DNA of 14,762 nucleotides from a virus (taxonomy: Duplodnaviria; Heunggongvirae; Uroviricota; Caudoviricetes). The stretch lies in IMG/VR virus record IMGVR_UViG_2684622581_000004, positions 1 to 14,762 of that record; one strand, 5' to 3'. Positions 1,249-14,762 of the stretch are shown piece by piece. Every line of letters begins with the position of its first letter. Within the stretch, counting starts at the first letter, position 1. The position numbers and the translations under genes were made by a program. A model generated the notes under the pieces. It was not told the origin of the DNA. It searched no databases and saw only the letters and a program-made list of their open reading frames with translations.

Positions 1249-1256
1249 ACGTAAAC

Positions 1257-1300
1257 TTTTCCGGTTGTTGTCGATATCTCCCTATCCCTCAACCGGAAAA
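1257..1300. repeat. 11-bp perfect inverted repeat (TTTTCCGGTTG / CAACCGGAAAA) with 22-nt loop just after cscB stop
   Basis: Read directly; no U-tract follows on either strand, so not a canonical intrinsic terminator. Confidence 0.3.
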
Positions 1301-1687
1301 TAATAATACTAAAGTGCTTAGCCCTGCTAATAATCACCTAATCCAAACGCCTCATTCATGTTCTGGTACAGTCGCTCAAATGTACTTCAGATGCGCGGTT
1401 CGCTGATTTCCAGGACATTGTCGTCATTCAGCGACCTGTCCCGTGTATCACGGTCCTGCGAATTCATCAAGGAATGCATTGCGGAGTGAAGTATCGAGTC
1501 ACGCCATATTTGCTATCAGGATTCTGTGTGATGGTTACATCGCCCGGCCCAGGGCTGTTTAGTCATCAGCGCTTTCTGACAGTGCTGAGATTTCAACCTG
1601 TTGCAGTAAAAATGAGTAGATATAAGGCAAGTGTGCTGCCAAACCTATCTTTTACGGGGTGAAGGTAGATTTCGTTTGAAGGGTATC

Positions 1688-1702
1688 TGGTGTCCCCTGC
1701 AG
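1688..1702 (-). other. Prophage attR core: copy of argW tRNA-Arg 3' end (CTGCAGGGGACACCA on minus strand)
   Basis: Minus-strand 15-mer is identical to the 3' terminal sequence of argW as I recall it; lies 73 nt beyond the torI stop; core sits inside a 7-bp inverted repeat CCCCTGC...GCAGGGG (1694-1726). Confidence 0.65.
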
Positions 1703-1759
1703 ACATCTACTTGACGCGGCAGGGGATTGATTAGAATGGTGTTTTTTAGGTGTGAGAAA

Positions 1760-1781
1760 TATTTTACCCGCTATTTTACCC
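1760..1781. repeat. Tandem direct repeat TATTTTACCC x2 (12-bp period) overlapping torI 3' end, adjacent to attR
   Basis: Read directly; position between RDF gene and att core fits arm-type/RDF binding sites (inference). Confidence 0.3.
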
Positions 1782-1976
1782 ATTGGCGCGGCTTAAGAGC
1801 TTATTTTTGAATTCACAATGGTCACGATATAACCATCTTGCTCGCCCGTGGATAACTTTGGCTTTTGGCAGGTCGCCGGACTTAATCCGGTCATAGATGA
1901 AGGTTTTACCAAAGCCAGTATCAGCCATGATGAATTTCAAATCAACTAGGGAATCAGGCTGTAGTTCGTGTTGCAT
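1776..1976 (-). CDS. torI: Excisionase-like recombination directionality factor / Tor inhibitor (AlpA-Xis family winged helix)
   Basis: 66-aa ORF MQHELQPDSLVDLKFIMADTGFGKTFIYDRIKSGDLPKAKVIHGRARWLYRDH...; matches my recollection of E. coli TorI; RBS GGAG about 9 nt upstream; last gene before attR. Confidence 0.8.
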   Translation of the reverse strand: MQHELQPDSLVDLKFIMADTGFGKTFIYDRIKSGDLPKAKVIHGRARWLYRDHCEFKNKLLSRANG

Positions 1977-1995
1977 GAGTGCTATCTCCGAATAG

Positions 1996-2011
1996 GGAAT
2001 CGAACCTGCAA
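1996..2011 (-). other. 16-nt tRNA T-arm fragment (TTGCAGGTTCGATTCC) identical to the argW segment immediately 5' of the att core
   Basis: Minus-strand 16-mer in the torI promoter region; similarity does not extend into the rest of a tRNA, so this is a fragment, not a gene. Confidence 0.4.
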
Positions 2012-2107
2012 ATCAGGTAATAAAAATACGCTCAATGACGGCGATGGTAGATCAGGATATTTTAAGAAACTGACAGGCCTCATCGAGTGTGAGGCTGTAT
2101 GGCTCTA

Positions 2108-2413
2108 TTATTTCACCTCTTGTTGTGACATTGTTGAAAAATGGATACCAGCTCGTTGCTGCCAGACGATCCAACCGAGAGTCATATCCCATGCCATGTA
2201 TTCGTTATCGCCGTTTTTTGCTCTCCGACGATCTACTAAGTCACCGAAACGCTTTTCCATGAATAATTCATAAGCTTCGCGTTCATCTAGTTCTACTTCC
2301 AGAGATAGGAGTGCGATTTCATAAGCACGGCGCTCAATATCGTCTCGCACGTCAAGGCTGCTGATACGCTCTTTAATTTCTTTAATCAGTTCTTTGTCGG
2401 TAAAAGTGGTCAT
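2108..2413 (-). CDS. yfdT: Hypothetical prophage protein (YfdT-like, 101 aa)
   Basis: ORF with GGAGG RBS; start overlaps upstream stop (TAATG); size and position match K-12 CPS-53 yfdT as I recall it. Confidence 0.55.
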   Translation of the reverse strand: MTTFTDKELIKEIKERISSLDVRDDIERRAYEIALLSLEVELDEREAYELFMEKRFGDLVDRRRAKNGDNEYMAWDMTLGWIVWQQRAGIHFSTMSQQEVK

Positions 2414-2775
2414 TATGCTCCAGCCTCCGGTGCTTTTGGCATTACTGCCCAGTGAGTGATATTGACGTTTTCAAGGTCCCCGACCTGAAATGTCCACTGC
2501 CATTCTCCGGTTTCTTTTTGCCCCCAGGTGTACCAGAGAGAACGCCAGCCAATTAGCCAGCCTTCTCCGTTAGCATCGAATAACAAAACACTTTCATTTG
2601 CTGGTGGCAGTTCAGTTGACACTGGTATTGCTTTGTTTTCCTGTGCTGCACATTTAGCTTCAAGCGCATCGAATTTGCGCACCAGGTATTCAGCATCTGT
2701 TTCATTCACTTTCAGATCTCGCGGTACACATCTCCCACGAAGAAACCCTTCCATTTCGAAAACATTCATGCGCAT
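2413..2775 (-). CDS. yfdS: DUF551-family phage protein (YfdS-like, 120 aa)
   Basis: C-terminal W-rich motif ...GWLIGWRSLWYTWGQ...NITHWAVMP typical of DUF551; GGAG RBS; overlaps upstream gene by 10 nt. Confidence 0.6.
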   Translation of the reverse strand: MRMNVFEMEGFLRGRCVPRDLKVNETDAEYLVRKFDALEAKCAAQENKAIPVSTELPPANESVLLFDANGEGWLIGWRSLWYTWGQKETGEWQWTFQVGDLENVNITHWAVMPKAPEAGA

Positions 2776-3302
2776 TTGCGTAACTCCGATAACTCGTTAA
2801 AACGTTCCATAAACATCCCGTAGGCATGGCCCGGTGCCAGTGGAATCACGTTGAACATCTCTGTTGCCGGGATGCCTTCCAGTACAGGCCAGAAAGAGCC
2901 ATCATCAAGCCCGAGATCGCGGCGTTCGGTTGCCAGCATGATGAGATCGGCATATTTCACAGGCGTGCTCATAACCGGGGGTAACCCGTATTTCTCACGG
3001 ATTACGGCGTCTATTTTTTCTTCCATCCGTTTATAGTCAGGAAGAAGGCGTTTCAGTGGCGCGGGGATGTCCTGACAATAAGCTTCTGTTGCATCATGCA
3101 TTAACGCTTCAAAAGCAAATTCCTGCGGTACCAGCTGGCTGCAAAGCACCGCATGTTGGGCGACGCTGTAGAAGTGTGAAAGATGTCCTGCAAAGCGACA
3201 GATATTTGAAAGGGAAACCGCGATATCGTTAATATCGATGTTGTCTTTATTTATCCTGTCATAATAAAAATGCTTCCCGGAAAAAGTTTTAATAAATGAC
3301 AT
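2766..3302 (-). CDS. yfdR: HD-domain phosphohydrolase (5'-deoxynucleotidase, YfdR/YfbR-like)
   Basis: HD motifs (AQHAVL...ALMHDATEAY); start chosen at internal ATG 3302-3300 with GGAGAA RBS 5 nt upstream, giving 178 aa; the longer ORF to 3365 has no RBS. Confidence 0.7.
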   Translation of the reverse strand: MSFIKTFSGKHFYYDRINKDNIDINDIAVSLSNICRFAGHLSHFYSVAQHAVLCSQLVPQEFAFEALMHDATEAYCQDIPAPLKRLLPDYKRMEEKIDAVIREKYGLPPVMSTPVKYADLIMLATERRDLGLDDGSFWPVLEGIPATEMFNVIPLAPGHAYGMFMERFNELSELRKCA

Positions 3303-3396
3303 TTTGTTCTCCACGTTATATGCGCTGCACCGCGCTGAAATTTGGTTAAAGAAAAACCTCGCCATCAGGCGATTATTGAGTCAATTACGTTTCCAT

Positions 3397-3418
3397 AAAT
3401 GCCCCCGCAGGGGCATTT
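3397..3418 (-). terminator. Perfect 9-bp stem hairpin (AAATGCCCC-cgca-GGGGCATTT) 11 nt downstream of the yfdQ-like stop
   Basis: Read directly; weak U-tract, so a terminator or RNA-processing role is uncertain. Confidence 0.25.
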
Positions 3419-3430
3419 GCAGTAATGAAA

Positions 3431-4255
3431 TCAGGCGGTGAAAGTACCAATAAAGGTTTCTACTTTGCTGTCTTTGAACTTCTCAACAAGCAGATCACGA
3501 AATTCGTTAGCCATTTCCTCCTGCACTGCTTCCAGCTGAATAATGCGTAGTACCAGTACAGGACGATCGCCAGTGATAATGCTGAGGCGTAATTTAAACG
3601 GACGTTCTTTCAGACCTTCAAACGGAACGCATTTAAATTCAAATGCCACTGGCATAATGTCTTTGGTCTTCGCTTCGACAGACTCCATCAGGGAGCGTTT
3701 GCCGCTGAAGTCATTATCTTCAAAATCAGCTGTCTGGTTCGCTTCAATTGTGATTTTACGGATCGCCGCAGCCGCTTTGGTTGCCTGAATGGCGTCACCA
3801 TTAGCATCAAAGCCCACAAGGTAGTCGGCCCAGTCTTCAATCCATTCTGCCAGTGACTTCTGGGAGTTACGCTCGCCGTTAACAGACAACAGGGCAGAGA
3901 ACGGTGCTGTCTTTTTCAGTTTGAGAGTGGCGGTGTTATCTGCGTGACCTGGTTCATCAATAGTACCCAGGTTAAGCACACTGACGGCTCGCATATTATC
4001 GGCATCGATAAAGCAGCGGGTGCCTTCATCTGCAAGATCTTTAGAATAACGGGTAAAGTCATCGATGCTGGCAGTGGAAAGCGCACCACGGAAACGGAAG
4101 CGATTTAAATTAAATTTTTCCAGATCATGAATGCGGAAATTCTCAGGCAATGCCACAGCATCGGCACCAATCTTACTGATAATTTCATTAACACCCTGAG
4201 CAGAAATAAGGGCATGGATTTGATTAATTGTGGTTGCGTCTAAGTTCTGAGACAT
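3431..4255 (-). CDS. yfdQ: DUF2303-family prophage protein (YfdQ-like, 274 aa)
   Basis: 274-aa ORF with GAGGA RBS; size and neighbourhood match K-12 yfdQ as I recall it. Confidence 0.6.
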
Positions 4256-4320
4256 AATAAGTCCTCACTATATAAAGATATTCAGTGATGAGATAAATAA
4301 TCAGTTTATTAAGAACGATA

Positions 4321-4683
4321 TTAACGACCTGCTGCGCGGAGTTTTCCGTCAGGCTCACCGGCAAGAGTCAGTAATTGTCCCTGGTCTTCCTGCAGAATAG
4401 TCAGGCGACCACCGCGATTGACATACATCGGCGTTTCGGTGGTGTCTTCTTCGGAAATTTTCCCGCGGTTAGTCGGGCGAACATATGAGAGTTTGTGTTT
4501 GATTTTCACTCGGTTCTCATCAAACGGTTCGATTTCTAGGTTGAGCGAGACCTTACCTTTGGTTCTCGTGTTCATCACACCGGAAGCGACTTCACTGAGA
4601 ACTGCGCCGATTTTGGTTTCAAATACGCCGCCGTCCAGCTCCCCGATAAATGCCTGCACATCAGTACTGCGTTCGCTAGCCAT
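4321..4683 (-). CDS. yfdP: Hypothetical prophage protein (YfdP-like, 120 aa)
   Basis: Start at ATG 4683-4681 with GAGGAG RBS 7 nt upstream; the 226-aa extension to 5001 runs through GC-rich Pro/Arg-rich sequence and is rejected. Confidence 0.55.
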   Translation of the reverse strand: MASERSTDVQAFIGELDGGVFETKIGAVLSEVASGVMNTRTKGKVSLNLEIEPFDENRVKIKHKLSYVRPTNRGKISEEDTTETPMYVNRGGRLTILQEDQGQLLTLAGEPDGKLRAAGR

Positions 4684-5151
4684 TTTGCTGCTCCTCATCA
4701 TATCGACCCTGCAAGGTCGGTTAGTTTCTCCACAAAACAGAGAAGAACACCTGCGGTGACTGCCGCCCGGATGGATTGGGTTATGAGCCCGTCGTCCGGT
4801 GATGCTCTTCTCTGTTTTGTAAAAAGGACGGTACCAGCCGGAAGCAAGGGTACAAGCTGGTACCGCCAAGACTACACACAGCATAAAGTTGTGGTGCCGG
4901 GTGCCTCCCGGTGCCTGGCGAAGGTTGCACACCAGGCGGGTGGGTATCCACAGAAGGTCGACTGTCAGCCTCAACCTTAACCCGCGTGCGCTGAGCCGCA
5001 TTCACCACAACGCTAAGGATTCTCTCTGGTTGAAAATACTTAGCTGTTATGTGCCTGCTTTTAGCCACATCAGGCGAGGTGGACCTAGTTATTCCCCAAC
5101 AACAAGGATTCGGTTAATCTGGTTATCCCCAACAACGCAAAAGGAAAAGAA
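4684..5151. other. GC-rich, hairpin-dense noncoding island (candidate structured ncRNA or cis-regulatory leader)
   Basis: No credible ORF in six frames; 15-bp perfect inverted repeat 4732-4746/4806-4820; 10-bp stem 4829-4838/4856-4865; further stems 4897-4911 and 4913-4938; direct repeats GTTATYCCCCAACAAC at 5088-5103 and 5121-5136; GC far higher than the flanking AT-rich genes. Confidence 0.45.
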
Positions 5152-5586
5152 ATGTCCGGTAATATCTATACGCTGTACAAATCCCACTGTGAAAATGTTG
5201 GAAAGTATCGGGGCATTGAAATCAGTGGGGTAGTGTCATCAGTCGAAATAAGCAAAGTTGAATCAAGGGCAACATTACTTACTCTTCTGGACCTTGTCTT
5301 ACATGAGCACCGGAAGAAATTCGGCACTCCCTATAATCAGTTGAATGGGAAAAAGGCTCTGGTTCACCTTATTCTGATGAAGCATCACTGGATGCCAAAA
5401 CAGATTAATGAGATGAAATTTGATGAACTTCTTCTTTCAATTCAGGATGAACTCACACTTGATAAAATAAGCGTAACCGCCCAGAAATTTTTAGATTATC
5501 GAGACTGGAGATCACAAATTCATCACTTTGATGATTTTGACGAAAATGAATGGGATCCTAATTTGTCTGCACAATATCTAAAGTAA
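5152..5586 (+). CDS. Orphan hypothetical protein (144 aa), AT-rich, opposite strand to the early-left operon
   Basis: ATG with AAGGA RBS 6 nt upstream; protein-like composition; no family recognised; markedly lower GC than neighbours. Confidence 0.55.
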   Translation: MSGNIYTLYKSHCENVGKYRGIEISGVVSSVEISKVESRATLLTLLDLVLHEHRKKFGTPYNQLNGKKALVHLILMKHHWMPKQINEMKFDELLLSIQDELTLDKISVTAQKFLDYRDWRSQIHHFDDFDENEWDPNLSAQYLK

Positions 5587-5764
5587 CATCCTGTGATAAA
5601 ACCGTGATTTCCTGATCCAGTTTTTTTAAGGAGTCTATTGTTTCCTGTCGATAAGACAGCACTTCACGAAGCTGGTTTATAGCTGCCAGCTTCTTTGTCA
5701 TCCACTCATAAATTTCCTCATCTGTGTAGCCAGGCGCGACGATTTTGGGTTCTGTTTTGTGCAT
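5558..5764 (-). CDS. Small acidic hypothetical protein (68 aa), first ORF downstream of PL
   Basis: ATG 5764-5762 with GAGGAG RBS at 7-nt spacing; overlaps the 3' end of the convergent 144-aa ORF by 29 nt; not Arg-rich, so not N-like. Confidence 0.5.
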   Translation of the reverse strand: MHKTEPKIVAPGYTDEEIYEWMTKKLAAINQLREVLSYRQETIDSLKKLDQEITVLSQDVTLDIVQTN

Positions 5765-5809
5765 TTCACATCTCCTCAAGTTATCAGTTACTTGTTGATG
5801 GGGACCAGA

Positions 5810-5821
5810 TTGTTAAAGAGC
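5810..5821 (-). promoter_or_regulatory. rrn-type boxA (GCTCTTTAACAA) in the PL leader; nut-like antitermination element
   Basis: Minus-strand 12-mer matches the rrn boxA core as I recall it (TGCTCTTTAACAATTTATCA); flanked by hairpins at 5824-5841 and 5776-5793. Confidence 0.5.
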
Positions 5822-5823
5822 TA

Positions 5824-5846
5824 AGCGTCCTGTAGGGCGCTTTTTT
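5824..5846 (+). terminator. Stem-loop (AGCGTCC-tgta-GGGCGCT) followed by T6: intrinsic terminator on the plus strand, or boxB-like hairpin on the leftward transcript
   Basis: 7-bp stem with one G-U pair, 4-nt loop, U-run only on the plus strand; would end the transcript of the 144-aa gene. Confidence 0.5.
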
Positions 5847-5930
5847 GTTGCTAACGAATCATCCTGGACTTCATATGCCCCAGGCGGCTACTTCGTGGGC
5901 GTCCTGCCTGTTTGTTGTTTCTCTTGGGTA

Positions 5931-5959
5931 CATTATGTATCTCAAAGGTACATTGTCAA
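5931..5959 (-). promoter_or_regulatory. Leftward early promoter PL (-35 TTGACA, 16-17 bp spacer, -10 CATAAT) overlapped by GGTACA operator half-sites
   Basis: Minus-strand hexamers read directly; GGTACA at 5927-5932 and 5947-5952 resemble the OR half-sites. Confidence 0.55.
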
Positions 5960-5998
5960 GTATAAAAAAACCTGCCGAAGCAGGTTCATAAACATTGA

Positions 5999-6673
5999 TT
6001 AGGCTTTGATTTTGTATCTTCTTGGTTTTCCTGAGAAAATCACAGTACCAATTATAGAGCAATTACCGTTGATCTTGATGTAAGGCTCAGGCCAGTTTGG
6101 GTTTAACGCTTTGAGATAACGCTGTGTCCCATCTTCTATCAACCTTTTGAAGGTGGTTTCACCTGTATCGTGCATCAATGCAATAACGTCGTCACCGTGG
6201 CAGGCAGGTACTTCAGGATCGACAAAAATCATGTCTCCCGGGCGGTACTCATCAATCATTGAATCACCTATCACCCGCAAGATATAAGTCATTTCCCCAC
6301 AGGGTACAGGGCAGGGATACGTTTCTGCTGTGCTCAAATCAACCTCAGAATATCCAACTTCTTTCCATGCTCCGGCCTGTACCCATGATATGACAGGGAC
6401 TAATGTGATTTGTTTATTAGTGATTGAAACATCAGGTTTTTTTGTGATGTTCGTTGTCTGGTGTTCTTGATCGAGCCATCCGACAGGCAGGTCGAAACAT
6501 TTTTCGATGTGTCGTGCCATGCTGTCACCGATATTTTTAGTAGCACCATCTCCCATAAACCTGCTGGTCTGGGTTGGCTCGCGATCAATCATAGTGGCAA
6601 AGGAAGAATTCCCGCCAACACCATCTCTCAGTTTTCTGGCGTTAGACCGCCGGATGTCATGGATTGTTTTCAT
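5999..6673 (-). CDS. cI: CI-like prophage repressor (N-terminal HTH, C-terminal S24 LexA-type autopeptidase)
   Basis: 224 aa; S24 catalytic Ser in VIGDSM and Lys in TFKRL; Ala-Gly candidate cleavage site (VQAGAW); divergent from a cro-like gene. Confidence 0.85.
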   Translation of the reverse strand: MKTIHDIRRSNARKLRDGVGGNSSFATMIDREPTQTSRFMGDGATKNIGDSMARHIEKCFDLPVGWLDQEHQTTNITKKPDVSITNKQITLVPVISWVQAGAWKEVGYSEVDLSTAETYPCPVPCGEMTYILRVIGDSMIDEYRPGDMIFVDPEVPACHGDDVIALMHDTGETTFKRLIEDGTQRYLKALNPNWPEPYIKINGNCSIIGTVIFSGKPRRYKIKA

Positions 6674-6688
6674 AACGAAATTAAAACC

Positions 6689-6757
6689 CTTGTACCGTTA
6701 AGGTACAAGTATCTTGAAGGTTCATTTCAATCATGTAATATGTACACCGGAGGTACA
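6689..6757. promoter_or_regulatory. OR operator region: palindrome CTTGTACC-N5-GGTACAAG (6689-6709) and palindrome TGTACA-N5-GGTACA (6741-6757)
   Basis: Perfect inverted repeats read directly, flanking and overlapping the PR hexamers. Confidence 0.6.
6714..6741 (+). promoter_or_regulatory. Rightward early promoter PR (-35 TTGAAG, 16-bp spacer, -10 TAATAT)
   Basis: Hexamers read directly, 23 nt upstream of the cro ATG; second operator overlaps -10/+1. Confidence 0.55.
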
Positions 6758-6763
6758 TATCGT

Positions 6764-6964
6764 ATGAAAGCGTATTGGGACTCTTTAACCAAAGAACAGC
6801 AGGGCGAGTTGGCCGGAAAAGTTGGCTCAACACCTGGCTACTTACGGCTGGTTTTCAATGGCTATAAAAAAGCCAGTTTTGTGCTGGCTAAAAAACTTGA
6901 GCAATGCACGTCAGGTGCAATTACGAAATCTGACTTAAGACCGGATATCTATCCGAAAGATTAG
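6764..6964 (+). CDS. cro: Cro-like small HTH regulator (66 aa)
   Basis: Divergent from cI across the operator region; GGAGG upstream; the 167-aa ORF-track version is an antisense extension into cI and is rejected. Confidence 0.6.
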   Translation: MKAYWDSLTKEQQGELAGKVGSTPGYLRLVFNGYKKASFVLAKKLEQCTSGAITKSDLRPDIYPKD

Positions 6965-6995
6965 CAGAACACTTTCAATTTTTAACCACAGAACG

Positions 6996-7559
6996 ATGAG
7001 GCTAATCGTGGGTAAGCATCACTGGAAAATAGAAAAACAGCCTGAGTGGTACGTGAAAGCTGTCAGAAAAATTATCGCGGCGTTGCCGGGTGGTTACGCT
7101 GAAGCGGCTGACTGGCTCGATGTAACAGAAAACGCTTTATTCAACCGCCTTCGTGCAGATGGCGATCAGATTTTCCCGCTGGGATGGGCAATGGTTTTAC
7201 AGCGTGCTGGTGGCACTCACTTCATTGCTGATGCTGTGGCGCAGTCTGCAAATGGCGTCTTTGTGTCTCTTCCTGACGTCGAGGATGTGGACAACGCCGA
7301 TATTAACCAGCGTCTGCTGGAAGTCATTGAACAGATCGGCAGTTATTCAAAACAGATTCGTTCAGCAATCGAAGACGGTGTAGTGGAACCGCATGAGAAG
7401 ACAGCAATTAACGACGAGTTGTACCTCTCAATTTCGAAGCTGCAGGAGCATGCAGCACTGGTCTACAAAATTTTTTGCATTTCAGAAAGTAATGACGCCC
7501 GCGAGTGTGCAGCTCCGGGCGCCGTGGCGTGTCGTGACTGTGGAGAAACTAACGCATGA
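6996..7559 (+). CDS. CII-like phage regulatory protein (putative; YdaT/CP76-like)
   Basis: Position immediately after cro; 187-aa ORF; alternative GTG start at 7008 has a better RBS (GAGG); family assignment is from weak recollection. Confidence 0.4.
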
Positions 7560-7894
7560 ACAGTTTAACAACACACTACCGTCGCTCGCAACTGATTGCG
7601 CTTCCTGTACCGGGTGGAAAAGCGAAGGTGGAGTATTGCTATGCAGTGAATGTACCAGGTGACAGGGAAATTGTAACCCACAGCTTTGCAGAGTGGGCTG
7701 TGGGTGATTTCAACCGGCAGAAGGAGACAGTCCTTTGCGACAAGTTAACCGCTGGTTCAAAGATCACTACGGAGTGCCCGTCAGAGTCATTCGTTGGGAG
7801 CCGGAAACACAACGGGTTATCTACCTCCGTGAAGGCTATGAGCATGAGTGCTTCAGCCCGCTCGAACAGTTTCGTCGTAAATTCAGGGAAATAG
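7556..7894 (+). CDS. Hypothetical protein, apparently frame-disrupted (frame changes at about 7705-7740)
   Basis: ATG overlaps upstream stop (ATGA) with GGAGAA RBS; N-terminal 60 aa look protein-like, the C-terminal part is Ser-rich junk, while the -1 frame from TTG 7734 (AAGGAG RBS) to 7914 gives a good globular sequence. Confidence 0.3.
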
Positions 7895-7903
7895 AGGTCG
7901 GTC

Positions 7904-8845
7904 ATGAGCACTAAATTAACCGGCTATGTATGGGATGGTTGCGCTGCGTCAGGCATGAAATTATCCAGCGTGGCAATTATGGCCCGCCTGGCTGATTTCA
8001 GTAATGACGAAGGTGTGTGCTGGCCATCAATTGAAACCATTGCCCGTCAGATTGGCGCGGGGATGAGTACCGTCAGAACGGCTATCGCACGGCTGGAAGC
8101 AGAAGGCTGGTTAACGCGTAAGGCGCGTCGCCAGGGTAACCGCAATGCGTCGAATGTTTATCAGCTTAACGTTGCGAAGCTTCAGGCAGCGGCATTTTCT
8201 CAACTGTCAGATTCTGACCCGTCAAAATCTGATGCATCAAAATCTGACCCGTCAAAATTTGATGCGTCGAAATCTGGCAAAAAAGCGGGTTTTCACCCGT
8301 CAGAATCTGGCGGGGATCCGTCAGTAAAATCAAAACATGATCCGTCAGATAAAAAAACTTCTCGTCCGGACGCTTCGCAACCGGACACGCAGACGGCTGA
8401 ACAGGAGTTTTTAACTCGCCATCCTGATGCGGTTGTATTCAGCCCTAAAAAGCGCCAGTGGGGAACGCAGGATGATTTGACCTGCGCACAGTGGCTCTGG
8501 AAAAAAATCATCGCCCTGTACGAGCAGGCCGCCGAATGTGACGGCGAGGTGGTTCGTCCCAAAGAACCGAACTGGACAGCCTGGGCAAACGAAATTCGCC
8601 TGATGTGTGTGCAGGATGGTCGTACTCACAAACAAATCTGCGAGATGTACAGCCGCGTCAGCCGCGATCCGTTCTGGTGCCGTAACGTGCTCAGCCCGTC
8701 GAAGCTGCGGGAAAAATGGGATGAGCTTTCCCTGCGCTTATCGCCGTCCGTCAGCACGCACACAGAAAAACGTGAAGACCCGTACTTCAAAGCCAGTTAC
8801 GACAATGTGGACTACAGCCAGATCCCGGCAGGATTCAGGGGGTGA
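7904..8845 (+). CDS. Replication initiator (lambda O-like, N-terminal winged HTH) with internal iteron origin
   Basis: 313 aa; AGAGG RBS; N-terminal HTH-like region; central low-complexity DPSKSDASKS repeats encoded by DNA iterons. Confidence 0.65.
   Translation: MSTKLTGYVWDGCAASGMKLSSVAIMARLADFSNDEGVCWPSIETIARQIGAGMSTVRTAIARLEAEGWLTRKARRQGNRNASNVYQLNVAKLQAAAFSQLSDSDPSKSDASKSDPSKFDASKSGKKAGFHPSESGGDPSVKSKHDPSDKKTSRPDASQPDTQTAEQEFLTRHPDAVVFSPKKRQWGTQDDLTCAQWLWKKIIALYEQAAECDGEVVRPKEPNWTAWANEIRLMCVQDGRTHKQICEMYSRVSRDPFWCRNVLSPSKLREKWDELSLRLSPSVSTHTEKREDPYFKASYDNVDYSQIPAGFRG
8213..8357 (+). repeat. Iteron array (candidate ori): two 30-bp tandem repeats plus further CCGTCAG copies, followed by an A-rich tract
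   Basis: TCTGACCCGTCAAAATCTGATGCATCAAAA at 8213-8242 and near-identical copy at 8243-8272; CCGTCA core at 8219, 8249, 8296, 8318, 8342. Confidence 0.6.
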
Positions 8846-9336
8846 TTATGAGTCTTTTGAATGAAGTTCAGAAATTCATTGAAGCCCATCCTGGGTGTAC
8901 TTCCGGAGACATTGCTGATGCTTTTGCAGGTTACTCACGGCAGCGCGTTCTGCAGTCAGCAAGCAAGTTACGTCAGAGTGGGCGTGTGGCTCACCGTTGT
9001 GAAGGGGATACACGCAGACATTTCCCGCGCCAGACAAAGATATCGCCGGAGGCGGAACGGCAACCAGTTCGTGAAACCAGACCTGTGCGCAATTTCTATG
9101 TCGGCACTAACGATCACCGGGTGATTTTGTGCCTGACCCGCCAGGCTGAAGAACTGGAGTCAAGGGGCTTATACCGTCGTGCTGCAACCGTGTGGATGGC
9201 GGCATTCCGTGAAAGCCACTCCCAGCCAGAACGAAACAATTTTCTGGCGCGTCGTGAGCGGTGCTTACGGAAAAGCAGCAAGCGCGCTGCATCGGGTGAA
9301 GAGTGGTATCTGTCAGGGAATTACGTGGGGGCTTAA
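8842..9336 (+). CDS. yfdN: PerC-family-like transcriptional regulator (YfdN-like, 164 aa from GTG; alternative ATG at 8848)
   Basis: Motif RQAEELESRGLYRRAATVWMAA resembles the PerC/Pch signature; overlaps the upstream stop; size matches K-12 yfdN as I recall it. Confidence 0.5.
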   Translation: MIMSLLNEVQKFIEAHPGCTSGDIADAFAGYSRQRVLQSASKLRQSGRVAHRCEGDTRRHFPRQTKISPEAERQPVRETRPVRNFYVGTNDHRVILCLTRQAEELESRGLYRRAATVWMAAFRESHSQPERNNFLARRERCLRKSSKRAASGEEWYLSGNYVGA

Positions 9337-9989
9337 TGAGTAATAAATATTGTCAGGCGCTGGTGGAACTGCGGAACAAACCAGCCCATGAACTGAAGGA
9401 AGTGGGCGATCAGTGGCGCACGCCGGATAACATTTTCTGGGGAATTAACACCCTGTTTGGTCCGTTTGTTCTGGATCTGTTCACTGACGGTGATAACGCC
9501 AAATGTGCCGCGTATTACACGGCGGAAGACAACGCGCTGGCGCATGACTGGTCAGAACGTCTTGCGGAGCTTAAAGGTGCTGCCTTTGGTAATCCCCCAT
9601 ACAGCCGCGCCAGTCAGCATGAGGGGCAATACATCACCGGCATGCGTTACATCATGAAGCATGCCAGTGCCATGCGTGATAAAGGCGGGCGCTATGTTTT
9701 CCTGATCAAAGCTGCCACCAGCGAAGTGTGGTGGCCGGAAGATGCAGATCATATTGCTTTTATTCGCGGGCGTATTGGTTTTGAACTGCCTGCCTGGTTT
9801 ATCCCGAAGGATGAGAAGCAGGTGCCGACAGGCGCTTTCTTCGCTGGTGCTATTGCTGTTTTCGACAAGACCTGGAAGGGACCGGCAATCAGCTACATCG
9901 GGCGCGATGAACTTGAGGCATGTGGTGAGGCGTTTCTGGCGCAGGTTCGCCAGCAGGCGGAAAAACTGGTCAGGGAGATGGCGGCATGA
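9336..9989 (+). CDS. Phage N6-adenine DNA methyltransferase (Dam-like, orphan)
   Basis: Catalytic NPPY motif (FGNPPYSR); start at ATG 9336 overlapping the upstream stop (TAATG); no adjacent restriction endonuclease. Confidence 0.8.
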   Translation: MSNKYCQALVELRNKPAHELKEVGDQWRTPDNIFWGINTLFGPFVLDLFTDGDNAKCAAYYTAEDNALAHDWSERLAELKGAAFGNPPYSRASQHEGQYITGMRYIMKHASAMRDKGGRYVFLIKAATSEVWWPEDADHIAFIRGRIGFELPAWFIPKDEKQVPTGAFFAGAIAVFDKTWKGPAISYIGRDELEACGEAFLAQVRQQAEKLVREMAA

Positions 9990-10312
9990 CGACGTTAACT
10001 CAATGCCAGCAGCAGGTGCTGGATATGCTGATTTCTTACCAGAAAGAACGTGGCTTTCCGCCAACCAATCAGGAGGTGGCAACCATGCTGGGATACCGTT
10101 CAGTGAATGCAGCAGTGGAGCATCTTCGCGCACTGGAGAAAAAAGGCGTCATCACGATAAAGCGTGGCGTGGCCCGGGGGATAACGCTTCATACCGCGGT
10201 GAAGGCCGACGACAGCGAGGCGGTCGAGATTATCCGCGCACTGCTTGCCGGTGAGGAAAACGGCAGGCTGCGTGCAGCCCACTGGTTACATGAGAGGGGC
10301 CTGAAAGTATGA
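9986..10312 (+). CDS. LexA N-terminal DNA-binding-domain-like protein (no S24 peptidase domain)
   Basis: 108 aa; strong resemblance to the LexA winged-helix DBD (QQQVLDMLISYQKERGFPPT...LRALEKKGVI); ATGA overlap with the MTase stop. Confidence 0.6.
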   Translation: MTTLTQCQQQVLDMLISYQKERGFPPTNQEVATMLGYRSVNAAVEHLRALEKKGVITIKRGVARGITLHTAVKADDSEAVEIIRALLAGEENGRLRAAHWLHERGLKV

Positions 10313-10698
10313 AGCTGAACCTGCCTTTTCCGCCCAGCGTGAACACGTACTGGCGACACCCCAACAAAGGGGCGTTTGCTGGTAAGAGCCTGATAAGCGC
10401 GGCGGGGCGAAAATTCCAGAGCGCGGCGTGCGCAGCAATAGTTGAGCAGTTACGTCGTCTGCCGAAACCAACGTCGGCACCTGCTTCAGTGGAGATCGTG
10501 TTGTTTCCTCCGGATAACCGGATCCGCGATCTGGACAACTATAACAAGGCGCTGTTTGACGCCCTGACCCACGCGGGTGTGTGGGAAGACGACAGTCAGG
10601 TGAAAAGAATGCTGGTGGAGTGGGGACCGGTTATCCCGGAAGGGAAGGTCGAGATCACTATCAGTAAGTACGAGAAAACGGCGGGTGCAGCCGCCTGA
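10309..10698 (+). CDS. rusA: Holliday junction resolvase RusA
   Basis: 129 aa with RusA-like N-terminus (LPFPPSVNTYWRH) and DLDNYNKALFDALT motif; ATGA overlap with upstream gene. Confidence 0.8.
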   Translation: MKLNLPFPPSVNTYWRHPNKGAFAGKSLISAAGRKFQSAACAAIVEQLRRLPKPTSAPASVEIVLFPPDNRIRDLDNYNKALFDALTHAGVWEDDSQVKRMLVEWGPVIPEGKVEITISKYEKTAGAAA

Positions 10699-10717
10699 TC
10701 AAGAGGAGAAACGAAGT

Positions 10718-11515
10718 ATGAATAATCTGATGGTCATTGATGGTATTGAAGTTCGTCGTGATGCTTTTGGGCGTTACAGCCTGAACGATCTGCACAGGGC
10801 TGCCGGTTCTCTGGATAAGCATAAGCCTGCATTCTGGCTCCGCAATGAGCAAACTGAACGTTTAATAAGCGAGTTGCAGATTTGCAACTCGGTCAATATA
10901 GAGCCAGTTAACGTTATTCGTGGCGGAAATAACCAGGGGACGTATGTCTGCAAAGAACTGGTGTATGCCTATGCAATGTGGATCAGCCCGTCATTCCATC
11001 TGAAGGTGATCCGTACTTTCGACATGGTAACCAGTGCACCGGAAAAATTATCCGGACAGGCTGCTGACAAGATGCAGGCTGGTGTGATTCTGCTGGACTT
11101 TATGCGCCGGGAATTAAACCTGTCTAACTCTTCAGTGCTTGGTGCCTGTCAGAAACTCCAGGAGGCTGTTGGCTTACCGAATCTGGCACCGCGCTATGCC
11201 ATTGATGCTCCTGCTGACGCGCCTGATGGCTCAAGCCGCCCCACGCTGTCACTGAGTGCACTGCTGAAGCAGTATGGTATCCGCCTGACAGCTAATCAGG
11301 CATATCACCAGATGGTGAAGCTGGGGATCGTCGAGCAGCGAGAACGGTACAGCCGTACCACGATTAACAACATCAAAAAATTCTGGTCGCTGACAGCGAA
11401 AGGCTGCATGTTCGGCAAGAATATCACCAGTCCCGCAAATCCGCGCGAGACGCAGCCGCATTTCTTCGAATCCCGATTCCCTGAGCTGTTAAAGCTGCTC
11501 GATACCGTTCATTGA
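10718..11515 (+). CDS. KilA-N domain protein (antirepressor-like)
   Basis: N-terminal KilA-N signature (IDGIEVRRDAFGRYSLNDLHRAAG...FWLRN); start at ATG 10718 with AGGAG RBS rather than the RBS-less 10685. Confidence 0.7.
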   Translation: MNNLMVIDGIEVRRDAFGRYSLNDLHRAAGSLDKHKPAFWLRNEQTERLISELQICNSVNIEPVNVIRGGNNQGTYVCKELVYAYAMWISPSFHLKVIRTFDMVTSAPEKLSGQAADKMQAGVILLDFMRRELNLSNSSVLGACQKLQEAVGLPNLAPRYAIDAPADAPDGSSRPTLSLSALLKQYGIRLTANQAYHQMVKLGIVEQRERYSRTTINNIKKFWSLTAKGCMFGKNITSPANPRETQPHFFESRFPELLKLLDTVH

Positions 11516-11516
11516 G

Positions 11517-12512
11517 GTGACCGTGAGAGCACTACTGACCCCTGAAATTGCCCCGCGTATGGGGATCGTATTGTTCAGGCCAGGTTCAGAGTTGATGCCC
11601 CTGTTTATGCAGAGGCGTGTCCTGCTGGAGCCTGAGCCGGAACGTTATTCATCTTTCGCCAGTGGTGCCGTTCCGGCGGCATCACAACCGCTGGCGGATG
11701 ATCCTGCCGTTCGGGCCGTGTTCCGCAATGAGGCAGTGATCCGTCGTGCTGGTGGCGTGGAATGTCTTGAAAGCTGGTTACTTCGTGAAAAAGGCTGCCA
11801 GTGGCCTCATTCCGACTGGCACAGCGAGAACATGACAACAATGCGACACGCTCCGGGCGCAATCCGTTTGTGCTGGCACTGCGATAACCAGCTGCGCGAT
11901 CAGTTCACGGAACGGCTGGAATCAATGGCAACGGATAACTGTGCCCGCTGGGTGTTGTCTGTTGTGCGTCGGGATCTCGGTTTTGATGATAGTCACGTTG
12001 TGACAATGCCGGAACTGTGCTGGTGGCTGATTCGTAATGACCTGGCGGATGCCTTACCGGAAAGTGCAGCCCGTAAGGCACTGAGATTACCGAAGCCTGT
12101 TGTGCAGGCGGTCACCCGGGAAAGTGACCTTGTGCCTTCGGTTCCTGCCACCAGCATTATCCAGGATAAAGCGAAAAAGGTGCTGGCGCTGAAAGTGGAT
12201 CCGGAGTCGCCGGAGTCTTTTATGTTACGCCCAAAACGTCGCCGCTGGGTTAATGAAAAGTACACGCGCTGGGTTAAGACACAGCCGTGTGCATGTTGTG
12301 GAAAGCTTGCTGATGATCCCCACCACCTGATAGGTCACGGTCAGGGTGGAATGGGAACAAAAGCGCATGACCTCTTTGTGTTGCCTTTGTGCAGAAAGCA
12401 TCACGACGAGCTGCATGCGGATACCGTGGCATTTGAAGAGAAGTATGGCTCCCAGCTGGAGCTGATATTTCGTTTTATCGATCGTGCGCTGGCAATAGGC
12501 GTACTGGCGTAA
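11517..12512 (+). CDS. DUF968-family protein with C-terminal Cys/His (HNH-like) motif
   Basis: C-terminal CACCG...HHLIGHGQGGMGTKAHD...LPLCRKHHDELH; GTG start with overlapping GAGG; start codon uncertain. Confidence 0.55.
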   Translation: MTVRALLTPEIAPRMGIVLFRPGSELMPLFMQRRVLLEPEPERYSSFASGAVPAASQPLADDPAVRAVFRNEAVIRRAGGVECLESWLLREKGCQWPHSDWHSENMTTMRHAPGAIRLCWHCDNQLRDQFTERLESMATDNCARWVLSVVRRDLGFDDSHVVTMPELCWWLIRNDLADALPESAARKALRLPKPVVQAVTRESDLVPSVPATSIIQDKAKKVLALKVDPESPESFMLRPKRRRWVNEKYTRWVKTQPCACCGKLADDPHHLIGHGQGGMGTKAHDLFVLPLCRKHHDELHADTVAFEEKYGSQLELIFRFIDRALAIGVLA

Positions 12513-12525
12513 GTGGAGAACGAGC

Positions 12526-13278
12526 ATGAACCTTGAAGCCTTACCGAAATATTACTCCCCAAAATCTCCAAAATTGAGTGATGACGCACCGGCGACAGGC
12601 TCTGGTGGTTTAACAATTACGGATGTGATTGCTGCGCAGGGGATGGTGCAGTCGAAAGCACCGCTTGGGTTTGCCTTATTCCTGGCAAAAGTTGGTGTTC
12701 AGGATCCTCAGTTTGCGATTGAAGGTCTGCTCAATTACGCGATGGCACTGGATAACCCGACATTGAATAAATTGAGTGAAGAAACCCGGCTACAGATTAT
12801 TCCTTACCTTGTGAATTTTGCCTTTGCTGATTATTCCAGGTCTGCGGCAAGTAAGGCTCGCTGTGAGCATTGTGCTGGTAATGGATTTCATAATGTATTG
12901 CGCGAAGTGGTGAAACACTCCAGAAGCGGGGAATCTGTTATCAAGGAAGAGTGGGTGAAGGAACTATGTCAGCATTGTCATGGTAAGGGAGAAGTCAGCA
13001 CAGCGTGCAGAGGGTGTAAGGGTAAAGGTATTGTCCTGGATGAAAAAAGGACCCGGCTTCATGGCACGCCTGTTTATAAGATTTGTGGGCGTTGCAATGG
13101 AAACCGGTTTAGCCGTTTACCAACCACACTGGCGCGGCATCATGTCCAGAAGCTGGTACCAGATCTGACGGATTATCAGTGGTACAAAGGATATGCAGAT
13201 GTCATTGATAAACTGGTGACAAAGTGCTGGCAGGAAGAAGCATATGCTGAGGCGCAATTAAGAAAAGTGACGAGATAA
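12526..13278 (+). CDS. Late-gene antitermination protein Q
   Basis: 250 aa with multiple CxxC zinc-binding pairs (CEHCAGNG, CQHCHGKG, CRGCKGKG, CGRCNGN); sits directly upstream of a late promoter/terminator and the lysis genes; GGAGAA RBS. Confidence 0.7.
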   Translation: MNLEALPKYYSPKSPKLSDDAPATGSGGLTITDVIAAQGMVQSKAPLGFALFLAKVGVQDPQFAIEGLLNYAMALDNPTLNKLSEETRLQIIPYLVNFAFADYSRSAASKARCEHCAGNGFHNVLREVVKHSRSGESVIKEEWVKELCQHCHGKGEVSTACRGCKGKGIVLDEKRTRLHGTPVYKICGRCNGNRFSRLPTTLARHHVQKLVPDLTDYQWYKGYADVIDKLVTKCWQEEAYAEAQLRKVTR

Positions 13279-13309
13279 ATGATTTTCGCCGAAGATAGTG
13301 ACATGATTC

Positions 13310-13338
13310 TTGCATTTTTCAAAAGATCTGGTTAGGAT
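13310..13338 (+). promoter_or_regulatory. Candidate late promoter PR' (-35 TTGCAT, 17-bp spacer, -10 TAGGAT)
   Basis: Hexamers read directly, 32 nt after the Q stop and upstream of a terminator. Confidence 0.4.
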
Positions 13339-13384
13339 TCTCCTAACGATGGGCTTTGTGTGTCTACCATTGATAATCTTCAAG

Positions 13385-13408
13385 AAACCGCCACCGAGCG
13401 GTTTTTTA
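13385..13408 (+). terminator. Candidate tR' intrinsic terminator (AAACCGC-caccga-GCGGTTT + T-run)
   Basis: 7-bp stem followed by TTTTTTATT; placed where Q-dependent antitermination would act. Confidence 0.45.
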
Positions 13409-13566
13409 TTGATGTCAATTGTGTTTTTAAGGCTCTCCTTCCTTAAAGTGTGTTGTACAAAAAACTGGCAGCCAGCTACGCTCATTTTGAAAAAGTGACA
13501 CCCTTCAATGTTTCTTTTGAATGGAATTGCTACCCATAAATCTCTATCAAAAACAGGAGAGCATAT

Positions 13567-13809
13567 ATGGTGGAGCGTTGTTCTGTTTGTGAGCAGTCAT
13601 TAAGTTATTCACGAGAAGTTGAACAAGATGGCGTTGAATATAAATCTTGCCCAAAATGTTCTGCTGATGCCGGAGTGCACGTTTTTTATAAAACAATAGA
13701 CTTTGGTTATAGGGATATGGGAGACGGAAGGCATATCGTTCAGTCATGGTGTCCGGCTTGTCGTTCTGGTGAAAAACCTTCTATACCACCAGCATTTAAA
13801 TGTTGTTAA
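13567..13809 (+). CDS. Small zinc-ribbon protein (80 aa, CxxC pairs); moron between tR' and the lysis cassette
   Basis: AGGAGA RBS 7 nt upstream of ATG; CSVC...CPKC...CPAC motifs; own terminator downstream. Confidence 0.55.
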   Translation: MVERCSVCEQSLSYSREVEQDGVEYKSCPKCSADAGVHVFYKTIDFGYRDMGDGRHIVQSWCPACRSGEKPSIPPAFKCC

Positions 13810-13828
13810 CTCAATGAATTATAAAAAG

Positions 13829-13853
13829 AGGCTGCCTGTGGGCGGCCTTTTTT
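13829..13853 (+). terminator. Intrinsic terminator (AGGCTGCC-tgtg-GGCGGCCT + T6)
   Basis: 8-bp stem with one G-U pair, followed by TTTTTTG; directly after the zinc-ribbon ORF. Confidence 0.6.
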
Positions 13854-13940
13854 GTGCACTACGCAACTTTTGCGACTCAGCGCTATAACCAGCTTCTTTC
13901 CCTTCACTCGTTGCACTTCCGATAACCGGAGGTGGGAATT

Positions 13941-14282
13941 ATGAAAATGCATAACGATCCTCATTCCTGGTCTGACTTACTTGAATTGTTACAGAGCTGG
14001 TGGCGTGGAGACACACCGTTGGGCGCAGTAATTATGTCGATCGTTATGGCTGGCTTGCGCATTGCCTATTTTGGCGGTGGTGGTGGCTGGAAGCGAAAAA
14101 CGCTCGAGATTTTGCTCTGTGGCGCTCTGACTCTGACTTTTGCATCCGCTCTTGAGTATGTCGGATGGCCTAAATCTCTTTCTGTTGCCATTGGTGGCGG
14201 CGTTGGGCTGATCGGGGTCGATGCTATTCGTGGGGCTGCAATGCGAGTAATCGGTAACAAATTTGGTAGCTCGAAGGAGTAA
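13941..14282 (+). CDS. S: Holin (lambda S-like class I, dual-start MKM)
   Basis: GGAGGTGGG RBS then ATG-AAA-ATG; hydrophobic TM-like segments; immediately upstream of endolysin; the GTG at 13932 from the ORF track is rejected. Confidence 0.75.
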   Translation: MKMHNDPHSWSDLLELLQSWWRGDTPLGAVIMSIVMAGLRIAYFGGGGGWKRKTLEILLCGALTLTFASALEYVGWPKSLSVAIGGGVGLIGVDAIRGAAMRVIGNKFGSSKE

Positions 14283-14285
14283 TTT

Positions 14286-14762
14286 ATGCAGGAACTAAAT
14301 CCTCAGCGTAAAGCTTTCCTTGATATGGTGGCCTGGTCAGAAGGAACGGATAACGGGCGACAACCGACACGTAACCACGGTTATGACGTTATTGTCGGTG
14401 GAGAACTCTTCACTGATTACTCCGATCATCCTCGCAAACTTGTCACGCTAAACCCCAAACTCAAATCAACAGCCGCCGGACGTTACCAGCTTCTTTCACG
14501 TTGGTGGGATGCTTACCGTAAACAGCTTGGTTTGAAAGACTTCTCCCCCAAAAGCCAGGACGCTGTGGCATTGCAGCAGATTAAAGAACGTGGCGCTTTA
14601 CCGATGATTGATCGTGGTGATATTCGTCAGGCTATCGACCGTTGCAGCAATATCTGGGCTTCGTTGCCGGGCGCTGGTTACGGTCAGTATGAACATAAAA
14701 TTGGTGACCTGATTGCCAGGTTTAAAGAGGTTGGCGGGGTGGTAAATGAAGTTGAGCTATAA
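14286..14762 (+). CDS. R: Endolysin R (lambda-type lytic transglycosylase, 158 aa)
   Basis: Near-identical to my recollection of lambda R (QRKAFLDM.AWSEGTDNGRQ.TRNHGYDVIVGGELFTDYSDHPRKLVTLNPKLKST.AGRYQLLSRWWDAYRKQLGLKDFSP...); stop TAA at window end. Confidence 0.9.
   Translation: MQELNPQRKAFLDMVAWSEGTDNGRQPTRNHGYDVIVGGELFTDYSDHPRKLVTLNPKLKSTAAGRYQLLSRWWDAYRKQLGLKDFSPKSQDAVALQQIKERGALPMIDRGDIRQAIDRCSNIWASLPGAGYGQYEHKIGDLIARFKEVGGVVNEVEL

Follow-up and report, generated by a model that had tools for sequence, protein, structure and literature searches.

A zinc-ribbon gene cassette between the Q antiterminator and lysis genes of lambdoid prophages, with a candidate link to restriction-modification

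The Caudoviricetes record IMGVR_UViG_2684622581_000004 (positions 1 to 14,762, analysed over its full 14,762 nt and referred to as the window) carries, between a lambda-type Q antiterminator gene and the holin and endolysin genes, an open reading frame (ORF) at 13567-13809 of the + strand that encodes a cysteine-rich protein of 80 amino acids (aa), MVERCSVCEQSLSYSREVEQDGVEYKSCPKCSADAGVHVFYKTIDFGYRDMGDGRHIVQSWCPACRSGEKPSIPPAFKCC. Comparison with relatives indicates that this gene, its leader and a terminator form a horizontally mobile, promoterless cassette found in the same slot beside unrelated Q, holin and endolysin types. The regulatory frame, in which Q acts on a late promoter (pR') and the terminator that follows it (tR'), is a textbook Q/pR'/tR' cassette, and the site is a textbook cargo site. 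The occupant is leader-embedded cargo with an unclassified domain that, judging from the company its homologues keep, is linked to restriction-modification (R-M).

The 80-residue protein and its cassette

The ORF is a genuine gene under strong purifying selection. Against L002 (loci gathered for comparison are cited by L number) the non-synonymous rate (dN) was 0.13 and the synonymous rate (dS) about 2, and against ten relatives non-synonymous changes amounted to 0.12-0.40 per site with synonymous changes saturated at 0.70-0.85. A ribosome-binding site (RBS), AGGAG, is located at 13555-13559, 7 nt 5' of the ATG, and the profile of phrog_7682, a phage protein family without an assigned function, was matched end to end (E 7.2e-60, residues 1-80 against profile positions 1-80 of 80). 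An initial annotation made from the sequence alone had proposed a real, cysteine-rich gene with a good RBS; the purifying selection and the phrog_7682 match bear this out, and the ORF, three CxxC pairs, RBS and terminators that it listed were all found in place. Contigs of E. coli, Salmonella and Morganella that encode the identical protein number at least 1000, always under the name 'hypothetical', and 23 of the 5426 complete E. coli genomes carry it. A word-indexed search recovered 20 clusters only, all of ~79 aa and 55-99% identity, and an exhaustive profile search recovered 277 representative proteins at E <= 0.001. No homologue was found by tblastn in 50,697 GenBank phage records, the family residing instead in prophages and IMG/VR contigs.

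The cysteines of the protein comprise three CxxC pairs (C5/C8, C28/C31 and C62/C65) together with C79 and C80. Across 46 diverse sequences, residues C5, C8, K26, S27, C28, P29, C31, S32, H38, F46, G47, Q59, S60, C62, C65, R66 and C79 are invariant or nearly so, and the seven conserved cysteines and one histidine would be enough for two predicted zinc sites. The most conserved part reads CPxC...FGYRDMGDGRxIxQSWCxxCR, from which short forms of ~60 aa in Firmicutes retain only CPxC...FG(Y/F)R.M....QS(W/Y)CxxCR. Because these short forms keep just those cysteine pairs, C28, C31, C62 and C65 were assigned to a putative C4 zinc ribbon core, with C5, C8, H38 and C79 predicted to form an accessory site. 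The core contains two conserved CxxC knuckles (C28/C31 and C62/C65) ~30 residues apart, as in a zinc ribbon, and the AF2 model (pLDDT 84, pTM 0.69) is mostly beta or coil with short helices only. No Pfam, NCBIfam or PADLOC family scored above threshold for the 80-aa protein, PHROGs returned the unnamed family only, and neither curated zinc-ribbon families nor solved structures gave a significant match. As read from its sequence, the protein has the hallmarks of a zinc ribbon yet belongs to no curated zinc-ribbon family. The homology and structure searches suggested alongside the initial annotation gave a full-length match to phrog_7682 but neither a named family nor a solved fold. A hydrophobic segment is absent (maximum Kyte-Doolittle 19-residue mean 0.23), and enterobacterial members are acidic to neutral with a median pI of 6.0.

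A match to Hpy99I and the pattern CxxC...H...CxxC prompted consideration of a mini-HNH nuclease, which was rejected because no HNH profile was matched and because the fusion proteins described below bear a separate HNH domain. An R-M controller (C) protein was also set aside, there being no match to a helix-turn-helix (HTH) family and a model that is mostly beta or coil with short helices. For a Mu Com or Lar-type protein, the Pfam and NCBIfam output contained no Com model, and the Lar-like family phrog_6422 was reached at E = 0.7.

For comparison of the slot, 39 loci from reference genomes and 59 from IMG/VR were gathered, together with exact protein look-ups, and statistics were compiled for 53 non-redundant enterobacterial or viral prophage loci. 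The gene for the 80-aa protein (hereafter the zinc gene) follows Q in 47 of the 53 and precedes holin or endolysin genes in 49, with Q 1-4 kb upstream on the same strand and the holin or endolysin 0.3-2.7 kb downstream, and it always runs in the same direction as the late operon. Q belongs to PF06530 in most loci and to PF03589 in the window, L008, L022 and L023. The genes downstream encode holins of PF05106, PF16931 with PF05449, PF04971 or PF16083, and endolysins of the Phage_lysozyme, GH19, GH108 or GH24 families, so that at least four families of each are represented. At the DNA level the shared unit consists of a leader of ~75 nt, the RBS, the ORF and a terminator hairpin. Similarity of the window to zinc-gene relatives starts at ~13495 and ends after the T-run at 13853, and the leader at 13495-13566 aligns with the proximal leader of L006, L018, L019, L025 and L104 (GTGAC..TCA..TTGCTA..AGGAG).

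The terminator that closes the cassette, a hairpin with a U-run at 13824-13853, folds with a free energy (dG) of -19.6 kcal/mol (z -4.3), and 0 of 200 shuffled sequences were as stable. Of the 53 non-redundant relatives, 50 have a hairpin with a T-run within 60 nt of the stop codon, compared with control rates of 3.4% for random positions and 8% behind other ORFs, and compensatory changes affect 4 of the 8 stem pairs. Rfam gave sub-threshold small RNA matches only, which overlap this terminator. The hairpin had originally been described as dedicated to the gene; it does travel with it, but in 27 of 31 relatives bearing the promoter-like block described below it would itself be tR'.

The position of the cassette invites the idea that it encodes a lysis accessory or lysis-timing factor, as almost every prophage locus has a holin or endolysin gene at the distance given above, and in many of them, the window included, the holin gene comes straight after the zinc gene. 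We consider this highly improbable. A terminator stands between the zinc gene and the holin, the cassette is indifferent to the holin or endolysin family, and homologues are found in non-phage R-M cassettes and nuclease fusions. A lysis accessory protein was also tried as a family assignment and rejected, with no membrane segment in the protein and no lysis family matched in Pfam or PHROGs; it matches no known lysis accessory protein, and a clear match of that kind is what the initial annotation had named as counting against its proposal. Between an accessory role in DNA defence and one in lysis, the former is more likely.

Homologues in Photorhabdus (L028-L035 and L039) are ~50-60% identical, have no terminator and adjoin SMR-family transporter genes, not lysis genes. 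They may represent a domesticated or relocated copy.

Late promoter, leader and expected expression

The order on the + strand of the window is the Q antiterminator gene, a 288-bp gap, the 80-codon ORF, a 131-bp gap, the holin gene and the endolysin gene, with the following features.

12526-13278, + strand: Q antiterminator gene of the lambda-Q family, 250 aa (Pfam PF03589 Antiterm, 2.3e-52; phrog_127, 1e-107)
13310-13353, + strand: presumed late promoter pR', read directly from the sequence
13382-13410, + strand: tR'-type intrinsic terminator ending a short pR' leader (folding and comparison)
13411-13494, no strand assigned: junction DNA between tR' and the cassette (no alignment with relatives)
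13495-13566, + strand: conserved 5' leader of the cassette, including the RBS AGGAG at 13555-13559 (alignment with relatives)
13567-13809, + strand: gene for the 80-aa protein with the predicted zinc-ribbon core, phrog_7682 (profile match and conservation)
13824-13854, + strand: intrinsic terminator of the cassette, the final barrier ahead of the lysis genes (folding and comparison)
13941-14282, + strand: holin gene of the lambda-S family, first lysis gene, with an MKM dual start at 13941 and 13947 (PF05106, 4.7e-28; phrog_126)
14286-14762, + strand: lambda-R-like endolysin gene (phrog_90, 1.8e-62; RefSeq 'glycoside hydrolase family 24' in L001)

RefSeq names the Q gene ydfT 'antitermination protein' in L001. 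In E. coli genomes the host prophage has a lambdoid early region, a P27-type terminase, an HK97-type head and a contractile tail. The suggestion that the Q-to-holin interval is a cargo site holds for the window. Directly 5' of Q, at 11517-12512, lies a DUF968-family gene with a C-terminal HNH-like Cys/His motif, and the DUF968-Q pairing was found again in many relatives with either Q family.

The presumed pR' consists of TTGCAT (13310-13315), a 17-nt spacer and TAGGAT (13333-13338), followed after 6 nt by a -10-like pause element, AACGATGGG (13345-13353). This arrangement presumably corresponds to the TAAATT-N6-AACGATGGG geometry of lambda pR' and its sigma-dependent pause element. A consensus promoter scan did not list the presumed pR' at 13310-13338. 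The DNA at 13279-13407 shares ~85% identity with the leader next to Q in SfV, mEp460, Ayreon and Stx2c phages, and the similarity to these phages stops at 13407, at the end of tR'. The tR' hairpin (13382-13410) has a 10-bp stem and a U-run, with dG -11.8 and z -3.6 on folding, and the SfV and Ayreon records annotate the homologous position as a rho-independent terminator. Since a consensus terminator scan listed neither of the + strand terminators (13382-13410 and 13824-13853), both rest on folding and comparison. In outline, the lambdoid late region has been described as pR', a pause element, a terminator and then the late genes, with RNA polymerase (RNAP) terminating when Q is lacking (10.1101/651190).

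The first ~80-130 nt of the pR'-tR' leader (13279-13407) recur at ~80-87% identity with a variable downstream partner in most of the 2620 complete E. coli genomes, out of 5426, that matched a composite query, K-12-derived strains included. The junction DNA at 13411-13494 aligned with none of the relatives, and in E. coli genomes it is only ever found with the zinc gene (24 genomes); the longer stretch 13405-13570 accompanies the gene in every E. coli case. An exact tR'-holin junction lacking the cassette was found in none of the 5426 E. coli genomes. The consensus scan placed a minus-strand terminator-like site within the junction, and a palindrome, AACTGGCAGCCAGCT, is located there at 13463-13477 with a T-run following on the minus strand. 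It may be the relic of a minus-strand terminator from lost cargo.

A promoter of its own at 13413-13566 had been anticipated for the gene, which would make it a moron. None was found: the consensus scan detected no + strand sigma-70-like site in 13200-14000, no -35/-10 hexamer pair common to the leaders of relatives was apparent by eye in the alignment, and what the relatives share is the leader of ~75 nt. With no promoter of its own detected, the cassette is probably not a classical moron of the promoter-plus-terminator kind. A classical moron could still be maintained if the promoter at 13413-13566 were non-consensus, in which case the protein would be made in the lysogen without Q, as a factor for lysogenic conversion or superinfection exclusion. 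The site is a known cargo hotspot adjoined by defence-like genes in relatives, and the constant association of 13405-13570 with the gene in E. coli and the conserved leader would suit such a factor. We nevertheless judge it unlikely, given the outcome of the promoter search, the location of the neighbouring defence genes on the opposite strand while the zinc gene always runs with the late operon, and the small prospect that an 80-aa soluble zinc protein acts alone as a defence effector.

Transcription of the cassette from pR' is proposed with fair confidence. Control by Q, also expected in the initial annotation, follows naturally from the position 3' of pR' and tR'. In the window RNAP would have to pass tR' to reach the ORF, and because the ORF stands between two terminators its expression would be mainly Q-dependent and late; Q-modified polymerase would then also run past the cassette terminator and transcribe the lysis genes. 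Lysogens might plausibly express the gene in relatives with no preceding terminator; in the window this would need read-through of the upstream tR'.

In every locus with a PF06530 or Q21-type Q, a 45-nt block, CTAACGCGTACGCAAAAACTATCGTAAnCTGTTAAGAGTGGTC, is found ~130-150 nt 5' of the ORF, and variable minus-strand cargo separates this block from Q. The same block occurs in Stx1a phage LC567819, ~480 nt upstream of stx1A, and in Klebsiella phage MK416021, both of which have no zinc gene and show a terminator ~45-60 nt later. Because these zinc-gene-free phages show the block followed by a terminator, it is presumed from context to be the pR'/Q-loading region of the Q21-type Q. Between the block and the ORF no hairpin with a T-run was found in 27 of the 31 zinc-gene loci bearing the block, the four loci with a terminator-like hairpin being L017, L025, L104 and L108. 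With no terminator ahead of the ORF in those 27, the cassette terminator would be tR' itself there. In most relatives the ORF would therefore be made constitutively in lysogens on a terminated leader transcript and boosted after induction, as a protein-coding counterpart of the lambda 6S RNA. Sodalis L023 has a lambda-type pR', TTGCAA-N17-TAATAT-N5-TAATGATGGG, followed by an MT-A70 methylase gene, the zinc gene and the first terminator.

A conserved leader hairpin, GTTAAG...CTTAAC, lies ~60-70 nt after the start of the block (L104, L105-L109, L017 and L025; also L009 and L010). A T-run follows it in L104 and L108, where it is terminator-like, and in Stx1a phage L009 a separate strong terminator follows. 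The minus-strand cargo between the Q21-type Q and the block was delimited at L002:2478-3705, L004:1949-3800 and L006:1732-3830, with similar slots in L017-L020 and L079-L109 and the same layout in Stx1a phage LC567819 (L009:340-2447). Its modules are defence-like (GmrSD_N with HEPN, RelA_SpoT with NA37, Peptidase_M78 with HTH, KAP NTPase and DUF6731), and the slot looks like a defence-gene hotspot separating Q from its own promoter.

Homologues and the candidate function

Among longer homologues, the zinc domain is joined to nuclease and other domains. It is N-terminal on McrA-like HNH nucleases of ~350 aa (six listed) and on a NOV_C nuclease of PD-(D/E)xK type resembling PD-T4-1 and PDC-S36, and C-terminal on a DGQHR (DndB/DpdB-like) protein. 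In nine proteins of ~165-213 aa, out of 48 longer homologues, it is C-terminal and accompanied by a DUF3553 tudor-like domain; two of these tudor-like fusions lie in defence-like neighbourhoods (HSDR_N_2, AAA_21/23 and N6_N4 methylase).

Outside Enterobacterales, 11 of ~22 loci have the solo homologue immediately after a D12 (Dam-type) N6-adenine methylase gene. Two arrangements recur, where M denotes the methylase and Zn the zinc gene: M(D12) - 430-aa DUF6996/6997/7226 protein - Zn, often with a second N6_N4 methylase, and M(D12) - Zn - DpnII - M2. An annotated Megamonas plasmid (L120) has the order 'DNA adenine methylase', 423-aa protein, 59-aa Zn ribbon, and in L047 a Zn-X-HNH fusion directly follows a 362-aa protein that is 43% identical to the D12 methylase of L011. 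Other distant homologues adjoin housekeeping genes (ParB, Ldh, GroEL and MalQ). Together with the Photorhabdus loci, these contexts make the association with methylases strong but not universal.

The ~60-aa short forms (CPxC..FGYRDMGDGRIIPQSYC..CR) were located at L049:1841-2020, L050:3989-4168, L045:3986-4171, L043:4001-4189 and L120:3796-3975, where they either separate a D12 methylase from DpnII or follow a D12 methylase and the 423-430-aa DUF6996/6997/7226 protein. The latter protein, 423-432 aa with DUF6996, DUF6997 and DUF7226 (L011:3592-4884; L041, L042, L051, L053 and L054; L120:2492-3763), always follows a Dam-type methylase. It is found on Firmicute plasmids under the names 'hypothetical', 'translation elongation factor' or 'AAA-associated', has no PDB homologue, and is probably an unrecognised restriction endonuclease.

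In the prophages, an MT-A70 or N6_N4 methylase gene lies beside the zinc gene on the same strand in ~12 of the 53 loci. Orphan methylase genes were observed at L023:3175-3942, L022:2661-3263, L024:3369-3944 and L100:3371-3946, at L021:2847-3866, and at L025:4435-5478, L026, L091, L104 and L111-L113. A Tad2-like (Thoeris anti-defence 2) / DUF7823 gene is present in a Xenorhabdus prophage (L024:2574-3311), in the same late leader as the MT-A70 methylase and the zinc gene.

On this evidence the zinc protein is tentatively read as a methylation- or restriction-linked accessory that acts in counter-defence or R-M control and is expressed from pR', a possibility we favour while placing it short of probable. 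It is suggested by the three unrelated methylase families among the neighbours and the three nuclease types among fusion or operon partners, and by co-transcription with known anti-defence genes. The small zinc module would bind DNA, a methyltransferase or a nuclease and so modulate restriction versus modification, and phages would use the protein, often beside orphan methyltransferases, to protect replicating or packaged DNA. The earlier and broader proposal of a small regulator or anti-defence factor is narrowed by the family context to N6-adenine-methyltransferase R-M cassettes and defence nucleases.

Several points weigh against this assignment. The functional step is guilt by association, and no homologue has been characterised. 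The window has no methylase beside the zinc gene; judging by L001, the Dam-type methylase of the prophage is ~3.6 kb away on the upstream side. Intervals between Q and the lysis genes often contain methylases even where the zinc gene is missing, as in SfV and Ayreon, so that the association at the prophage level may partly reflect the site and not the gene. Acidic to neutral proteins with the median pI given above would be unusual for a DNA binder, and a protein made late would arrive after incoming DNA has needed its protection. In Photorhabdus the homologues occur in a non-phage context and have no terminator. The equation of block CTAACGCGTACGCAAAAACTATCGTAAnCTGTTAAGAGTGGTC with pR', on which expression in most relatives is modelled, is itself presumed from context.

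A modulator of late transcription, which would bind RNAP, Q or the leader and tune termination or antitermination at pR'/tR', would account for a gene that is always placed in the pR' leader or immediately behind it. Contacts with RNAP are frequent among small zinc ribbons, PcrA/UvrD tudor domains bind RNAP, and one of the nine DUF3553 fusions also matches the PcrA/UvrD tudor family. The cassette is, however, found beside two unrelated Q families (PF06530 and PF03589), homologues occur in R-M cassettes that have no Q, and the tudor fusions sit in the defence-like neighbourhoods listed above. Such a modulator is accordingly thought improbable.

Two distant homologues (P0186 and P0198) carry the JGI label 'phage FluMu protein Com', which is the source's own name, and raise the alternative of a Com-like regulator, an RNA-binding zinc finger controlling translation of the adjacent gene (a methylase in relatives, lysis genes here). 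Mu Com is small, cysteine-rich and late-expressed, as the zinc protein is or would be, and the zinc gene adjoins DNA-modification genes in the ~12 of 53 loci noted above. This alternative is quite doubtful, as neither Pfam nor NCBIfam matched a Com model, the zinc gene stands on either side of the methylase in different loci and has no methylase beside it in the window, and a terminator separates the zinc gene from the genes downstream.

Relation to known systems and significance

The cassette and its protein can be set beside several described systems. The lambda pR'-tR' leader (6S RNA) has the same succession of Q, late promoter with sigma-dependent pause element, terminator and lysis genes. 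It is non-coding, whereas the window has a protein-coding cassette and a second terminator after tR', and most relatives carry the ORF inside the leader, before the first terminator. Morons and cargo genes (stx in Stx phages; bor and lom elsewhere in lambda) resemble the cassette in being discrete, mosaic, terminator-bounded accessory genes at a recombination-prone site, but the zinc cassette has no detected promoter, is always co-oriented, and is placed relative to pR' and not randomly.

The orf47-orf48 pair of SfV and the corresponding pair of Ayreon occupy the slot after the same Q/pR'/tR' type as in the window. Their methylase (SfV orf48) is 82% identical to the methylase that follows the zinc gene in L025. 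Their small protein (MLKQQDMTETA...) is unrelated to the zinc protein, has no cysteines and is helix-rich, and the slot of the window contains no methylase. The small ORFs (SfV orf47, L118:1750-1944; Ayreon, L119:2430-2633) encode 64-67 aa, winged-helix-like by eye, and may be an analogous small partner.

Like R-M C proteins, distant homologues are small and encoded within methylase/restriction operons, some just before the nuclease with overlapping stop and start codons (L015, M-Zn-DpnII; L049). C proteins differ in being helix-turn-helix proteins and not zinc ribbons, neither an operator nor DNA binding is known for the zinc family, and in L011, L042, L053 and the Megamonas plasmid (L120) the zinc gene comes after the putative nuclease. 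Mu Com and Lar/Ral-type proteins are likewise small, cysteine-rich and phage-encoded with a contextual link to DNA modification or restriction, but show no significant sequence match and differ in Cys/His pattern and length. In the literature searched, no paper names the accession, the PHROG or the DUF6996/6997/7226 partner, and none gives the sequence of the conserved promoter block.

A bolder and rather unlikely extension is that the zinc ribbon is an unrecognised regulatory or sensor domain of R-M and defence systems that lambdoid phages have captured, and that the interval from pR' to the first terminator is a 'leader slot'. If so, the domain might, for example, read the DNA-methylation state or control nuclease activity, acting solo in Dam-type R-M cassettes and fused to HNH, PD-(D/E)xK-type and DGQHR effectors in cells, and the copies in lambdoid phages would be counter-defence factors. 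Zinc genes, MT-A70 methylases and Tad2-like genes in such a slot would be constitutive in lysogens and Q-boosted after induction.

Should none of these readings hold, the gene would be one more conserved small phage ORF at a known cargo site. If the link to restriction or methylation is true, the protein would be a new small zinc-binding player in R-M control or phage counter-defence, and the link would explain a recurrent accessory domain on defence proteins of the HNH, PD-(D/E)xK-type and DGQHR classes. An ORF between the late promoter and the first terminator, as in relatives, suggests a simple route for prophages to constitutive plus high late expression, and since Stx phages express Shiga toxin from the same region, this would bear on how that region is read.

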